From IMG/VR virus record IMGVR_UViG_3300005253_000164: a stretch of 26,989 nucleotides of DNA, one strand, 5' to 3'. This document shows positions 17,768 to 25,925 of the stretch, in pieces. Positions within the stretch are counted from its first letter, which is position 1. Every line of letters starts with the position of its first letter. The DNA comes from an uncultured virus (IMG/VR IMGVR_UViG_3300005253_000164). Its lineage: Duplodnaviria > Heunggongvirae > Uroviricota > Caudoviricetes. A program made the translations under genes and the position numbers. The notes under the pieces were generated by a model that had not been told where the DNA came from, ran no database searches, and saw nothing but the letters and a program-made list of their open reading frames with translations.

Positions 17768-20044
17768 ATGTCATTTAATAATTTTCAAATCGCTGTAAGC
17801 GATCAATTTGATAGAATGATTAGTCTTAGTACCGAATTATTCTATGTCGATGTGAGTAGAGATGAACTATTCAATCTTTACCTCGCAAGCTTCCCCGAAG
17901 GGGCAAACCCAATCTTTCGTGAAAGAACAGAACATGATTGCAATTGTTGTAAGAACTTCATTCGTAAGGCTGGCAACATGGTGGCAATCATTGATGGTAA
18001 CATTGAAACCGTTTGGGATGTTCAGCTTGAGGATCGTCATCAATATGTCGCCAATGCCTTAGCAGAGGCGGTAAGGTTCAGAAGTATTGCAGGCATCTAT
18101 CGTCAGAAAGAAAAGACCCTGGGTTCAAAACCCCATCGAGAAACAGATGAAAGTACAGGAAATTTTTACATCTTTGAACATTTTTACTATACACTTCCAT
18201 CCAAGTTCGTGGTTCAAGATGTTGCGAAATTTCGTGGCGATACCCACACCAACATGTCAATACTCAAAAGAAGCCTCACTGAAATTACTCTTGACGCAAC
18301 TGAAGATGTAATTGATCTGATTGAACGCAATAAACTCATTCGTGGTGCAGAACATCTTGAGGTTGTCAAGAAGTTCAAGAGGATCAAGAAAGAATTTGAT
18401 CAGCTTGATAAGTCTGATTGTGATTTATTCATATGGGAGACATCAGCAGAGATCGGGAAAGCTGGAAAGATCAAGAATACTGTTATTGGTACTCTACTGG
18501 TTGACATATCCACTGGTGTAGAGATTGGAGTTGCAATTGATAAATTTGGTGTCAAAGTCGATCCTCGAAATTACAAAAGACCTACTGGACTTGCAACCAA
18601 GGGCATGATCGCAAATGCCGAGAAGAAAGTCAAGGAACTTGAGATCGAGGATTCACTTGCTCGTAGATTTGCAACTGAAAAAGACCTCACTTCCAATAAT
18701 CTTCTATTTGTCAACAAAACAACTAAAAAGAAACTCAAAAAGAGTAAAAAGAAATCTTCTGTCTTTGATGAACTCCGCGAGGATACAAAGACCAAAATAT
18801 CTGAAAAATTACAGAAAGTTGAAATTGATGAGTTCATTGCAAACATCCTTCCACATGCTACAAATATTGAAATAATGATGGAAAATTCCCATGAAACCAA
18901 CTTGATGAGTTTGATCGCACCAACTAATGGTAAATGTCCTAACATTATGAAATGGGATAATCCCTTCTCCTGGTCTTATATTGGTGAAGTCACCGATTCT
19001 ATCATCAAAGAACGAGTAAAGAGAGCAGGTGGTAGTGTCACTGGTCTTATGCGATTTTCACTTGGATGGAGAAACTATGATGATCTTGATCTTCATTGTG
19101 AAGAACCCGATGGATCACATATCTATTATGGAGACATGCATTCTCGGAATGGTGGATGGCTCGATGTTGATATGAACGCGGGTGGTCGTAAATCGCGTGA
19201 ACCTGTTGAGAATATCACACACGAAACAGAAAGCCACCTCAAAGAAGGTAAGTACAAAATCTATGTTCACCAGTTCGCCAAGCGAGAAACTGATAATTAT
19301 GGTTTTGATATGGAAATGGAGTTTGATGGACAGGTTTACTTGTTCTCTTATGATAAACCAATGAAAAATAAGGAAATTGTACCTGTTATCGAGTTTACCT
19401 ATTCCAAAACCAATGGGATCACTATGGGTAAATCCTTACCTTCCAGTACCACCAGTAAAGAGGTATGGGGTGTCACTACTCAAGATTGGGTAAAGGTCAA
19501 TATGGTCCTCAACTCACCCAATCACTGGAATGGTCAGAATACAGGCAACAAACATTGGTTCTTTATTCTTAATGATTGTTTAAATCCTGACAGAGCAAGA
19601 GGCTTCTACAATGAATTCCTTAGAAATGAACTCACTCCCCATAGTAAGGTATTTGAGATGTTGTCTGCAAAGATGAAAACAGAAGAATCTAACAAACAAC
19701 TAAGTGGGTTAGGTTTTTCATCCACCTTGAACAATCGTCTGATCTGTAAGGTGGGATGGAATCAAGTTGGAAAATCTGATCGTGTAATGGAGATCATCTT
19801 TGCAAACGCTGGAAAGGAAGACACACCCATTTCACATAATATCCTCGAAAAATTAGGACTTTGTGAGGTTTGTAAGAAAGAAGTCACCAACCATGTTAGT
19901 AGGCTTCCATGTCCAAATGGTTGTGGTATATTTCACACCTCTCATTTCCTTGAATGGGTGCGTATCAAAGGGCAATGCCCTGTATGTAGACGAACAATCA
20001 CTCTACTTCAAATCAATGAACTAGTACAATTAGCCACTGTTTAA
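17768..20044 (+). CDS. Large phage-type protein with YfaP/DUF2135-like domain and C-terminal RING finger
   Basis: N-terminal FRERTEHDCNCCKNFIR motif; central RFSLGW..DDLDLH..EPDG.HIYY..GG.LDVD.N..PVENI; C-terminal CEVC..CPNGC..FH..H..EW..CPVC. Confidence 0.8.
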   Translation: MSFNNFQIAVSDQFDRMISLSTELFYVDVSRDELFNLYLASFPEGANPIFRERTEHDCNCCKNFIRKAGNMVAIIDGNIETVWDVQLEDRHQYVANALAEAVRFRSIAGIYRQKEKTLGSKPHRETDESTGNFYIFEHFYYTLPSKFVVQDVAKFRGDTHTNMSILKRSLTEITLDATEDVIDLIERNKLIRGAEHLEVVKKFKRIKKEFDQLDKSDCDLFIWETSAEIGKAGKIKNTVIGTLLVDISTGVEIGVAIDKFGVKVDPRNYKRPTGLATKGMIANAEKKVKELEIEDSLARRFATEKDLTSNNLLFVNKTTKKKLKKSKKKSSVFDELREDTKTKISEKLQKVEIDEFIANILPHATNIEIMMENSHETNLMSLIAPTNGKCPNIMKWDNPFSWSYIGEVTDSIIKERVKRAGGSVTGLMRFSLGWRNYDDLDLHCEEPDGSHIYYGDMHSRNGGWLDVDMNAGGRKSREPVENITHETESHLKEGKYKIYVHQFAKRETDNYGFDMEMEFDGQVYLFSYDKPMKNKEIVPVIEFTYSKTNGITMGKSLPSSTTSKEVWGVTTQDWVKVNMVLNSPNHWNGQNTGNKHWFFILNDCLNPDRARGFYNEFLRNELTPHSKVFEMLSAKMKTEESNKQLSGLGFSSTLNNRLICKVGWNQVGKSDRVMEIIFANAGKEDTPISHNILEKLGLCEVCKKEVTNHVSRLPCPNGCGIFHTSHFLEWVRIKGQCPVCRRTITLLQINELVQLATV

Positions 20045-20055
20045 ACCCACATGAG

Positions 20056-20074
20056 TTAAAATAAAATATTTTGT
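20056..20074 (+). repeat. 19-bp direct repeat TTAAAATAAAATATTTTGT (second copy 20406-20424) flanking the tRNA pair
   Basis: Exact match 350 bp apart; low complexity lowers significance. Confidence 0.6.
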
Positions 20075-20201
20075 ACATACTACCGTATTATTAAACAAAG
20101 TCTTAATAAACTATAATTAATATTTTCAATTATTCTATGATTACCATTTCCTCTCCCTCTCGTTTGGGACTCAGTTTACTATAATTTTTTATACAAAGTA
20201 A

Positions 20202-20286
20202 GCTGATATGGCAGAATGGTTGAATGCGTTTGGTTTAAGCCCAAATTGGTTAGTCCTCGCTATCGGTTCGAATCCGATTATCAGCA
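20202..20286 (+). tRNA. tRNA-Leu(TAA)
   Basis: Acceptor GCTGATA/TATCAGC, D arm GCAGAATGGTTGAATGC, anticodon stem TTTGG/CCAAA with loop TTTAAGC, long variable region, T arm ATCGG-TTCGAAT-CCGAT, discriminator A, CCA not encoded. Confidence 0.9.
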
Positions 20287-20295
20287 TCTTTCTTT

Positions 20296-20381
20296 GGCAG
20301 GTGTTGTTTCTTGTGGTCAAGAGGTTGGATTTAGAATCCAAAATGCGAGGCATCAATGGAGTTCAATTCTCCCATCTGTCA
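20296..20381 (+). tRNA. Non-canonical tRNA with TAG (Leu) anticodon, 8/4 fold
   Basis: Acceptor GGCAGGTG/CATCTGTC (8 bp, two G-U), D arm TTCTTG-TGGT-CAAGAG, anticodon stem TTGGA/TCCAA with loop TTTAGAA, V arm ATGC-GAG-GCAT, T arm GGAG-TTCAATT-CTCC. Confidence 0.75.
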
Positions 20382-20392
20382 TTTCATCCAAA

Positions 20393-20432
20393 TATTCATC
20401 TCGGATTAAAATAAAATATTTTGTTAACAAAT
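20393..20432 (+). repeat. TATTCATCTCGGAT..TTTTGTTAACAAAT bipartite repeat, copy 1
   Basis: 14-bp exact box plus operator palindrome; also at 21957 and 22518. Confidence 0.85.
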
Positions 20433-20460
20433 CTTATTAATATAGTGAGAATTATTTTAT

Positions 20461-20916
20461 ATGCCAATTTCCAATAAAAATATAATGAAAATAAACTATC
20501 CAAATAATATTTTCAAATTATTATCTTATTTTTTTCAAATAATAGTATCTGGTTTAATTATATATTATTTTAATTATATATTATCAGATGAACAACGACA
20601 AACATTGTATCACTGGAACGATCCACTTTTGACTATACTATTTTTATTTTTATTAATAACATTAATAATAATTAATATTAAATTATTTTTAAATATAATA
20701 TCTGATTATGTTGCTTGGTTTGAAAAAGAAAAAGATACTTTAAACAAGGATGAAAAAGACTTTTTTGAAACAATATTTAATATTTTAAGAAATAGAGGCG
20801 TAAAAACAGAGGATGCCTGTGAGATCGCAAATGAATATATTCTGTTGACACGAAATGTTCCTGCCGATCTTGATATGTTCTTGGAGAACAAAATAATAGA
20901 ACTTAATAAAACCTAA
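20461..20916 (+). CDS. Membrane protein (2 TM plus soluble C-domain)
   Basis: Two hydrophobic helices; extremely AT-rich 5' half; start may be ATG 20485. Confidence 0.65.
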   Translation: MPISNKNIMKINYPNNIFKLLSYFFQIIVSGLIIYYFNYILSDEQRQTLYHWNDPLLTILFLFLLITLIIINIKLFLNIISDYVAWFEKEKDTLNKDEKDFFETIFNILRNRGVKTEDACEIANEYILLTRNVPADLDMFLENKIIELNKT

Positions 20917-20933
20917 AATGGAGAATGTGAACT

Positions 20934-21632
20934 ATGAGAGATGAAATGAATAATTTATCAATACAGTCATCGATGCTTAAGTGGTATCCTTTAACTAAAG
21001 AAGTTAAGGTAAATCAGCCTAGGACAGAGATGTTAGAACTAACTTGGGAAGAAGCAAGATCTGGAGAGGATTACTTTGCGAGATCTGTGCAAAATAAAAT
21101 TATTAAATGGTTTAATACTTTAGATTTTGATTTCCCAGTTTTTATTAGAACTGATTTATCTAGTTGTAAACACCAATTTGAAGATACTTGTTTTGTTAAG
21201 TCAAAAGAAGATTTCCCAGAACATTTAAATGAATTAATAGTGGGAAATCGTTTGTTAGATATAATGGGGATACCATTCAAAGCTATTGTTGTCAGAGAGT
21301 TTATTACCCTTGATAGTAGATTTAAATCATTCAATGGTATGCCATTTGCCCCAGAGATTAGACTCTTCTATCGAGATGGGAAATACTTATGTCACCACAA
21401 TTATTGGCCTATAGAATCTCTATGGGGACAGGATGGTGTGAATTGGAAAAAACATTATGATGATATTGATCAAGTAATTAAAGCAGAGGCAGAGGATGTA
21501 AAGAAAGAGGCTAAGAAGATAGCTTCTGTTCTTAAGGGATACTGGTCGATTGATTTTGCGAAAGCTATAGATGGATCTTGGTATTTTGTGGATGCTGCAA
21601 TAGGCGACATCTCATTTCATATGACACATTAA
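20934..21632 (+). CDS. ATP-grasp fold protein (R2K-like peptide/amine ligase)
   Basis: PVFIRTD..S.KH, IVVREFI, EIRLF, YWSIDFA..DG.WYFVD are ATP-grasp motifs. Confidence 0.7.
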   Translation: MRDEMNNLSIQSSMLKWYPLTKEVKVNQPRTEMLELTWEEARSGEDYFARSVQNKIIKWFNTLDFDFPVFIRTDLSSCKHQFEDTCFVKSKEDFPEHLNELIVGNRLLDIMGIPFKAIVVREFITLDSRFKSFNGMPFAPEIRLFYRDGKYLCHHNYWPIESLWGQDGVNWKKHYDDIDQVIKAEAEDVKKEAKKIASVLKGYWSIDFAKAIDGSWYFVDAAIGDISFHMTH

Positions 21633-25031: not shown

Positions 25032-25925
25032 ATGGTAGACAAAACAGAATCATTAGAAAAAACACATGGACTAAATACGAGTAACTTCATCAAACCAATC
25101 AATGCGATGAAATTATCGATCCCAATTGATTACACTCCAGATTATATTAAAGATCTTTACCGAAGGGCAGATGATTATTGGGGAGACAAGCAACTGATTA
25201 TGTTGTTTGAAGAAATAGGGGAATTAACAGAGGTAATCACGAATATATATTTTCCTATCGATAATGGAGGGAGAATAGTTGACGAATTAGTTGATGTTTT
25301 TATTATGCTTGAACAATTTGCATGGAAATATAATCTGGATCGGGTAGAAACAATAGCACAAGAAATGCATGCAAACATGTATGTAAGGTTAATCAATGAA
25401 ATTCTTACAATTAGTAATCTTACTCAACAAGCATCAAGATTAATTAGGGGAAGAGCAAGTGTTTCAGATATGAACTTAGCACTTGCTAGGTTTGATTCAC
25501 TATTCAAGGGGTTGGTAAAGCATTATGGCCTAAGAAAGAAAATAATTGCCAGATACAAATTTAAGATTGATAGGTTAGAAGAGAGAATCAGAGGCCACGA
25601 ATTGAAGAAAAAAACAGTTTCAACAGAGGAAGCTAGTGTCTCATTAGATTCAAATTTGGGGATCACATATCATATTCCAGCTCATGTATATGCCAGAATG
25701 GCAAAACATAGTCGAGAACATGACGGAGTCAATGTGAAAATAAGAATGAGTACTGTTTTGGAATGGGCATGGCTGGAGCGACATGATTTGAGAACAACCC
25801 TCGAAAAAGCAGAAAGGGAAGATCCTACACAGGAATATAATGAACGTGTCTTTGGGTTAATAGTAGATATGGAATATCTCTGGGACAAAGCAGCCCTATA
25901 CAGACAGTTTGAAGTTGGGGAGTAA
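25032..25925 (+). CDS. MazG-like nucleotide pyrophosphohydrolase domain protein
   Basis: QLIMLFEEIGELTEVI..IVDELVDVFIMLEQ is the EExxE..ExxD MazG motif; KIDRLEERI end helix; extra C-terminal domain. Confidence 0.75.
   Translation: MVDKTESLEKTHGLNTSNFIKPINAMKLSIPIDYTPDYIKDLYRRADDYWGDKQLIMLFEEIGELTEVITNIYFPIDNGGRIVDELVDVFIMLEQFAWKYNLDRVETIAQEMHANMYVRLINEILTISNLTQQASRLIRGRASVSDMNLALARFDSLFKGLVKHYGLRKKIIARYKFKIDRLEERIRGHELKKKTVSTEEASVSLDSNLGITYHIPAHVYARMAKHSREHDGVNVKIRMSTVLEWAWLERHDLRTTLEKAEREDPTQEYNERVFGLIVDMEYLWDKAALYRQFEVGE

Follow-up and report, generated by a model that had tools for sequence, protein, structure and literature searches.

A candidate 8/4-class tRNA gene with a leucine (UAG) anticodon in an uncultured phage-like genome

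We analysed a stretch of 26,989 nucleotides (nt) from an uncultured virus of the Caudoviricetes (IMG/VR IMGVR_UViG_3300005253_000164), hereafter called the window, which corresponds, in reversed orientation, to the initial 26,989 bases of the 145-kb metagenome contig LAZR01000069.1. On its plus strand, at 20296-20381 and just downstream of a canonical tRNA-Leu(UAA) gene, lies an 86-nt tRNA gene with the anticodon UAG and a non-canonical body, in which an 8-bp acceptor stem is combined with a 4-bp T stem (8/4) in place of the canonical 7/5 arrangement. Tentatively, and well short of confidence, we favour the reading that the gene is intact and encodes a tRNA of the 8/4 class with a non-canonical structure, which is predicted to work in translation and to read CUA and CUG codons, most likely as leucine (Leu). 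The 8/4 class itself is already published; what is new is that, in a phage, an 8/4 body is combined with a UAG anticodon, the discriminator A73 and a variable arm of Leu-like type.

Fold and model matches of the 8/4 tRNA gene

The gene was delimited by its minimum free energy (MFE) fold, by Rfam and by a dedicated covariance model (R1, below). Its acceptor stem is formed by the 5' strand GGCAGGUG (20296-20303) and the 3' strand CAUCUGUC (20373-20380), which make eight standard pairs in the sequence, the MFE fold and the pair probabilities, two of them G.U (G20296-C20380, G20297.U20379, C20298-G20378, A20299-U20377, G20300-C20376, G20301.U20375, U20302-A20374 and G20303-C20373). A UUG linker (20304-20306; 4 nt when U20307 is unpaired) leads into the D arm (20307-20324), where a 6-bp stem (20308-20313/20318-20323) with inner pair probabilities of 0.99, extended by an optional seventh pair (U20307.G20324, probability 0.45), closes a UGGU tetraloop (20314-20317). 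The anticodon arm (20325-20341) has a 5-bp stem (20325-20329/20337-20341), the would-be sixth pair between G20324 and A20342 being absent, and a 7-nt loop, UUUAGAA, with U33, the anticodon UAG at 20332-20334 and A37. It is followed by a variable region of 16 nt (20342-20357), made of a single A, a 4-bp AUGC/GCAU stem (20343-20346/20350-20353) around the loop GAG, and an unpaired CAAU. In the T arm (20358-20372), GGAG (20358-20361) pairs with CUCC (20369-20372) around the canonical loop UUCAAUU. None of the 28 pairs departs from the standard types, and the loops carry canonical signatures: the UGGU loop holds the equivalents of G18 and G19, and with the UUCAA of the T loop the sequence contains the elbow bases for G18:U55, G19-C56 and U54:A58. 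In the 8/4 register the discriminator is A20381, and CCA is not encoded. The GC content of the gene (44.2%) is that of the adjacent tRNA-Leu(UAA) (44.7%) and not of its flanks (24.8% and 17.7%) or of the window (32%), and no open reading frame (ORF) of at least 80 aa overlaps 20045-20460. The acceptor and T stems, the long D stem with its UGGU loop, the long variable arm and the UAG anticodon had all been proposed from the sequence in the original prediction, and every one of them holds, with its coordinates, in both the sequence and the MFE fold.

The unconstrained MFE fold was the exact 8/4 cloverleaf at -26.5 kcal/mol, against a mean of -19.0 kcal/mol for shuffled sequences (z = -2.73), and 2 of 200 shuffles folded equally well. 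When single registers were evaluated, the 8/4 fold (-24.3 kcal/mol) beat both registers with a 7-bp acceptor (-21.5 kcal/mol for either) by 2.8 kcal/mol. The eighth acceptor pair, G20303-C20373, had a probability of 0.985. The original prediction had reasoned that a 7/5 fold would call for a G at position 8 and, within the T stem, for a U.C pair, which is correct from the sequence, and that pair, U20357.C20373, had a probability of 0.00. The 12-bp acceptor/T branch is thus split as 8 + 4 by the MFE fold, by pair probability and by end-to-end alignment to R1, and the canonical 7/5 cloverleaf fails on the missing T-stem pair and on the silence of ARAGORN.

As had been suggested with the original prediction, we ran gene finders and tRNA models on the window. 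ARAGORN found tRNA-Leu(UAA) and missed the gene at 20296-20381. Within the Rfam clan, the best match of the gene was the general tRNA model RF00005, at 32.2 bits (E 0.0034; gathering threshold 29), with the alignment forced into a 7-bp acceptor register and one T-stem pair deleted. We built R1 from six phage 8/4 allo-type tRNA-Ser genes, with the 8/4 structure imposed and the window gene left out. These came from 13 IMG/VR loci fetched by a T-arm/acceptor motif, the MFE folds of which had the same five-helix layout; a misaligned locus (L193), three with off-register or imperfect D arms (L189, L190 and L194) and three duplicates (L192, L197 and L199) were not included. R1 matched 20296-20381 from model position 1 to 84 of 84 with 35.4 bits (E 1.6e-7), and this was its sole match at E <= 10 across the 26,989 bases on both strands, tRNA-Leu(UAA) not being matched. 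As controls we used 120 small phage tRNA loci (among the matches listed) and 62 larger related loci, ~589 kb in all, in which the canonical maxima among the matches listed were 31.6 bits for tRNA-Ser and 27.2 bits for tRNA-Leu(UAG), and held-out 8/4 genes scored 62.8 (L084), 46.0 (L117) and 43.0 bits (L181). Since 10 of 12 other phage 8/4 genes were also missed by ARAGORN, its silence on the window gene is expected; the best Rfam match of these 12 was tRNA-Sec in 10 cases and none in two.

We compared the gene with 87 canonical phage tRNA-Leu(UAG) genes from IMG/VR, taken among the matches listed (at least 120 loci) and selected for A73; the counts for this set refer to those matches, in which sequences with G73 were tRNA-Ser. 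Like the window gene, the canonical genes have A73 (by selection), a UUUAGAA anticodon loop, a variable stem that is short, GG in the D loop and a consensus T loop, and the best of them was identical to the window gene at 59 of 86 bases (canonical-canonical median, 57). A variable stem of 3-5 bp was seen in 64 of the 65 canonical genes that bear such a hairpin, and that of the window gene has 4 bp. The window gene differs from them in being 8/4 and not 7/5, and in its D arm, since canonical genes have a 3-4-bp stem with a large loop and the window gene a hairpin with a 4-nt loop. Because this hairpin replaces the canonical D arm, the gene cannot offer U8-A14, A15-U48 and A20a at their usual positions. 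Around the UGGU motif, all 87 canonical genes could form only 0-2 hairpin pairs; 82 of 87 had five T pairs, and in none was pair 49:65 broken while 8:65 could form.

Relation to known tRNA classes

The (8/4) and (9/3) allo-tRNAs have as hallmarks a 12-bp acceptor branch, a long D stem of tRNA-Sec type that closes a tetraloop, a long variable arm and lengthened anticodon stems (Mukai et al. 2017, PMC5389517). In 2017, 8/4 tRNAs were described for Ser, His, Cys and Sec, in addition to the mismatched "allo" species, with phage examples reported for tRNA-Ser and tRNA-His, and most allo-tRNAs carry a serine-type discriminator, G73 or U73 (Mukai et al. 2017, PMC5389517). The window gene has the Sec-like D arm (six firm pairs and the optional U.G closing UGGU) and the long variable arm (16 nt, 4-bp stem) of this class, and lacks the lengthened anticodon stem (5 bp) and the G73 or U73 (A20381). 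The supplementary table of that study holds 731 rows, and our comparisons cover the rows matched by term searches. In six of these, all allo-tRNA(UAU), the 18-base T-arm string is identical to that of the window gene from 20356, and the UGGU D loop is found both in the supplement and in phage allo-type genes (PMC5389517). The proposal that the gene has an allo-tRNA-type 8/4 body with a Sec-like D arm is therefore borne out, by the end-to-end R1 match and by the UGGU and GGAG/UUCAAUU/CUCC motifs that it shares with phage allo-type tRNAs.

Its nearest structural counterparts are the phage 8/4 tRNA-Ser genes, which are likewise phage-borne, mostly missed by ARAGORN and found in tRNA clusters beside canonical tRNAs, and which have the same 8-bp acceptor, 4-bp T stem, 6-7-bp D stem with UGGU, UUCAAUU T loop and long variable arm. 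As in those genes, the anticodon of the window gene is plausibly cognate to its charging identity. It differs from them in carrying UAG (Leu codon CUA) and A73 where they have G73, in the acceptor strand (GGCAGGUG against the GGAGA/GGAAA type), in a variable stem of 4 bp followed by four unpaired bases in place of 5-8 bp abutting the T stem, and in its best Rfam match, the general tRNA model in contrast to tRNA-Sec (10 of 12).

Allo-tRNAs with Leu anticodons are on record as an (8/4) allo-tRNA-GAG of Silvibacterium bohemicum, a (9/3) allo-tRNA-UAA and one (9/3) UAG entry (PMC5389517). They share with the window gene a Sec-like body and an anticodon for a Leu codon, but their discriminator is G73, their acceptor stems are of Ser type and the residue they inserted in E. 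coli was Ser, whereas the window gene has A73 and Leu-like features; they come from GC-rich, Acidobacteria-type soil and sediment sequences, often near toxin-antitoxin genes, and the window gene from an AT-rich phage-like genome. All Leu-anticodon rows matched in the supplement have G73, save one 9/3 UUA row, and the sole UAG row is 9/3. In the literature on allo-tRNAs and on phage tRNAs with an 8-bp acceptor stem we found no 8/4 tRNA-Leu; the table of PMC5389517 may hold an 8/4 A73 entry with another anticodon.

We also considered tRNA-Sec (RF01852), which the window gene resembles in its long, tetraloop-capped D stem, its extended acceptor and its long variable arm, a 9/4 (13-bp) branch being thermodynamically possible. 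The anticodon is however UAG and not UCA, the anticodon stem of 5 bp sets the gene apart, no Sec machinery was found in the window, and the discriminator would be A (8/4) or U (9/4) and not G. We rejected this assignment on the anticodon, on the discriminator U20382 that a 9/4 fold would have, and on RF00005 being the best match in the clan. An assignment as tRNA-Ala was rejected too. The original prediction had noted, correctly from the sequence, that a 9/4 fold places a G.U at 3:70; this pair is 2:71 when A20381 is N73 and becomes 3:70 only if the register is 9/4, which makes U20382 the discriminator, so that no single register combines G3:U70 with A73.

These searches also brought up other unusual phage tRNAs. 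In phage tRNA arrays, 8/4 tRNA-Ser genes stand beside canonical tRNA-Leu(UAG) at L084:90-175, L117:276-364, L181:372-455 and L079:391-452, and those of L084 and L117, the two loci tested, were missed by ARAGORN. At L193:151-241 (minus strand), and identically in L197 and L199, we observed a 91-nt tRNA of the 8/4 allo type that has UUA in its anticodon loop and would therefore decode the UAA stop codon; the three lie in IMG/VR contigs of 78-89 kb and could be suppressor tRNAs of stop-recoding phages. A 73-nt class-I 8/4 tRNA-Asp with an ordinary D arm, a GUC anticodon and G73 occurs in L212, L213, L217, L227, L232, L244 and ~25 further loci, that is, in ~30 phage contigs, mostly of ~95 kb, with identifiers sharing one dataset prefix. 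Finally, a family of tRNA-like genes of 96 nt (L206, L215, L216, L228, L235, L237, L255 and L257) or 90-91 nt (L230, L238 and L245) combines a 7-bp acceptor and a 4-bp T stem with A73, and where a D arm would be expected it has a long compound hairpin.

Charging identity and rival explanations

Leucine appears to be the most probable charging identity, and it is favoured because the gene has A73 and a short, Leu-like 4-bp variable arm. A73 is crucial for leucine identity in E. coli, and the G73 of tRNA-Ser is an antideterminant for leucyl-tRNA synthetase (LeuRS) (PMC9976931). Codon usage was examined in the 34 ORFs of the window, where CUA makes up 74 of 573 Leu codons, and UUA, UUG, CUA and CUG together 433. 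The gene of a conserved 758-aa protein just upstream of the tRNAs has six CUA codons, two of them in a C-terminal extension absent from homologues; at the four alignable sites, Leu is found in 47, 39, 38 and 25 of 47 homologues, the remainder being Ile, Met, Val and Ala. Since its CUA codons fall at conserved Leu positions, CUA stands for Leu in this element.

Several observations weigh against a working, leucine-charged 8/4 tRNA. The D hairpin pairs up the positions equivalent to 13-15 and 20a-22, so that the core elements A15-U48, A20a and U8:A14 are missing. The E. coli LeuRS depends on A15-U48, A20a and core tertiary pairs as well as on A73, and for the Aquifex enzyme U8:A14 is crucial (PMC9976931); because the long hairpin cannot present these core elements in the usual way, leucylation is not assured. 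Sec-like bodies that have a long variable arm are acceptable substrates for seryl-tRNA synthetase (SerRS), and in E. coli it was Ser that 8/4 allo-tRNAs bearing Leu anticodons inserted (PMC5389517). The R1 score exceeds that of the best canonical tRNA-Ser by only ~4 bits and is well under those of the held-out 8/4 genes, three variable-stem pairs of R1 being unformed in the window gene, and the 9/4 fold, in which U20295-A20381 is formed (probability 0.755), is slightly more stable than the 8/4 fold (-25.0 vs -24.3 kcal/mol). Between 19800 and 20700 we found no terminator, nor a convincing plus-strand promoter before 20202. In L051, to which the neighbourhood is most closely related, this place is devoid of tRNAs.

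Nor did we find an orthologue that could lend the 8/4 fold covariation support. In IMG/VR, an exact 32-mer of the gene and a pattern of its anticodon arm and T loop gave no matches; a pattern of D loop, anticodon loop and T loop gave four loci, all canonical tRNA-Ser(AGA); a looser version gave at least 120 loci, of which those listed were canonical tRNA-Leu(UAG) and tRNA-Ser; and of the 54 loci matched by a T-arm pattern that ruled out 5-bp T stems, none bears a Leu anticodon. A blastn search of 20290-20390 against 50,697 phage records returned only matches of 24-36 bases (E >= 0.9). Over the GTDB species genomes, a pattern search gave five chance matches, with neither a tRNA nor an R1 match at those places, and R1 found no orthologue in the 62 related loci.

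Alternatively, the gene could be dead or dying, a diverged copy of a class-II tRNA that still folds by accident, is neither processed nor charged and is kept by chance beside the working tRNA-Leu(UAA). We consider this unlikely, though it has to be taken seriously: ARAGORN is silent, RF00005 passes its gathering threshold by only 3 bits, no homologue turned up in the IMG/VR patterns, the phage records or the GTDB pattern, and the closest related module (L051) is without a tRNA. Several allo-tRNA(UAU) variants were moreover inactive in E. coli, and an allo-tRNA pseudogene has been described (PMC5389517). Nevertheless, a neutral relic should drift towards AT and lose pairs, and we see a GC content equal to that of the working neighbour amid flanks of 18-25%, none of 28 pairs mismatched and intact loop signatures. 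An independent 8/4 model matches the gene from end to end, and its 6-7-bp D hairpin and G8-C65 pair are not a few random hits away from a 7/5 tRNA-Leu, either feature being seen in none of the 87 canonical genes. A tRNA-shaped RNA that does not decode seems to us quite unlikely. Such an RNA could serve as an RNase P/Z signal that frees the downstream message, as a decoy for a tRNA-cleaving defence nuclease of the host or as another regulatory RNA, and its place between two same-strand genes, with the next ORF 80 nt on and a module boundary at 20406 just after it, would suit this; many allo-tRNAs have been suggested to be unused in translation (PMC5389517). A processing signal has, however, no need of a fully canonical anticodon loop (7 nt, U33, A37) on a 5-bp stem, the UAG anticodon complements the UAA of the neighbour and fits a codon used 74 times, and the canonical tRNA-Leu(UAA) could already act as such a signal.

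The gene could also encode a missense allo-tRNA, charged with Ser through its long variable arm or with Ala, which would read CUA and, for example, damage host proteins in a toxin-like manner. The allo-type body seen in the R1 match speaks for it, as do a SerRS that ignores the anticodon and tolerates Sec-like D arms, the insertion of Ala by G3:U70 allo-tRNAs (PMC5389517) and the loss, through the D hairpin, of several core elements reported as needs of bacterial LeuRS (PMC9976931). We regard it as improbable nonetheless. The discriminator is A73 and not G73 or U73, while the matched Leu-anticodon allo-tRNA rows have G73 save the one 9/3 UUA row (PMC5389517), and A73 is a SerRS antideterminant, listed as such for human tRNA-Leu only; the main serine determinant is given as arm size (PMC9976931). 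The arm itself, 4 bp followed by four unpaired bases, is not the 5-8-bp stem abutting the T stem of phage 8/4 tRNA-Ser. As for Ala, its identity set is G3:U70 with A73 (PMC7590224), and in the window gene the G.U is 2:71 in the A73 register and 3:70 only with U20382. A missense tRNA would also mistranslate the proteins of the element itself, because their conserved Leu positions use CUA. On these three counts (A73, the absence of a register with both G3:U70 and A73, and the element's own use of CUA), mistranslation of CUA is less likely than the original prediction suggested. Of the readings set out above, we keep that of an intact Leu-type 8/4 tRNA as our working proposal.

Genomic context, proposed maturation and meaning

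The context looks like that of a large tailed phage. The ORFs of the window match PHROG phage families and include a DNA methyltransferase, MazG-like pyrophosphohydrolases, a nucleoside 2-deoxyribosyltransferase, an R2K ATP-grasp protein and a HerA/FtsK-type ATPase; no integrase, aminoacyl-tRNA synthetase or RNA-repair gene turned up in the window. The 758-aa protein (17768-20044, plus strand) belongs to phrog_1735 (E 1.9e-251), and at the DNA level its gene shares 68-72% identity with one found in Klebsiella, Salmonella and Escherichia phages of Ackermannviridae type, although the window has a GC content of only 32%. It is a very conserved phage protein to which no function has been assigned, and beyond a C-terminal RING-like zinc finger (residues ~697-745) it had no Pfam, NCBIfam or PDB match. 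Searching IMG/VR with it gave 49 loci, mostly at 35-49% identity, two of which (L004 and L005) keep a tRNA-Leu(UAA) downstream of the gene and are devoid of the second tRNA. The suggestion that the window comes from an archaeal virus-like element is not supported: no archaeal marker was found, and the phage-type D loop of tRNA-Leu(UAA), the PHROG matches and the DNA identity to enterobacterial phages speak against it.

The cluster of two tRNAs opens with a canonical class-II tRNA-Leu(UAA) gene (20202-20286, plus strand), found by ARAGORN and by RF00005 (62.5 bits), with the discriminator A20286, no encoded CCA and the D-loop pattern of phage tRNA-Leu genes in IMG/VR. A U-rich spacer of 9 nt read from the sequence, UCUUUCUUU (20287-20295), separates it from the 8/4 tRNA; its last base, U20295, would be either the -1 base for RNase P or, in a 9/4 fold, the partner of A20381 in a ninth acceptor pair. 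Downstream, a module made of a 151-aa membrane ORF and the R2K ATP-grasp gene (20406-21620, plus strand) recurs in other viral genotypes and is found in SDBV01000319.1 (L051), with a blastn identity of 88% over exactly this span and unrelated flanks. L051, along with the contig from which the window comes, was among 14 metagenome loci obtained with the ATP-grasp protein, and it is without tRNAs; a search with the HerA-like ATPase gave none. At 20407-20413, where their ends are loose, contigs of runs X1-X3 join the module to three different upstream sequences. Since homology to L051 starts at 20406 and the upstream joins differ, the tRNA pair sits at a mosaic or recombination boundary, and because that start is 25 nt past the tRNA, relatives have no counterpart of it. 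An attP site or integration scar was rejected, both tRNAs being complete and integrase Pfam matches being found in none of 37 ORFs.

One contig from run X3, which belongs to a second study, spans 18136-20531 and shows two differences overall, none of them listed within the tRNAs. This near identity excludes an assembly artefact and says nothing on constraint, and for the same reason the run contigs give no covariation information over the tRNAs. Compared with the X3 contigs, the window has an AT-rich indel hot spot at 20500-20520, inside the 151-aa ORF, and dense substitutions at 25263-25744, the remainder of the 13 kb compared being nearly identical.

For an intact 8/4 tRNA-Leu, we propose the following course of events. 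The gene would be co-transcribed with tRNA-Leu(UAA), 9 nt upstream, within a run of same-strand genes. RNase P would cut between U20295 and G20296, and the 3' end would be trimmed after A20381 and then receive CCA, the lack of an encoded CCA making this addition necessary. Once mature, the 86-nt tRNA would keep the standard 12-bp acceptor/T stack and an elbow between G18G19 and the T loop and, with these kept, could be used by EF-Tu and the ribosome. Most probably charged with leucine, it would decode CUA and, by wobble, CUG, and together the two tRNAs would cover the 433 of 573 Leu codons in the window ORFs. The unusual body could be neutral, or could confer resistance to a host tRNA-directed nuclease.

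A bolder idea, which we hold to be rather improbable, is that the phage carries a tRNA body foreign to the tRNA enzymes of its host, either as a Ser- or Ala-charged missense tRNA that rewrites CUA in the course of infection for host takeover, or as a Leu tRNA that evades a host anticodon nuclease or a tRNA-depleting defence. If the tRNA were mischarged, it would be a natural device for codon-specific mistranslation in a virus. If the defence-evading Leu version were true, a natural LeuRS would charge a tRNA without the canonical D-loop core. With a Leu-type, A73-bearing member, the 8/4 class would come to include an amino acid for which the bacterial synthetase is believed to recognise exactly those D-loop and core elements that this body lacks, and leucine charging of the window gene would directly test the current identity rules for tRNA-Leu. 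Standard finders miss functional-looking phage tRNAs, as ARAGORN did with the window gene and 10 of 12 others, and because 8/4 genes are missed, the tRNA repertoires of phages, and the codon-usage analyses that build on them, have been undercounted.

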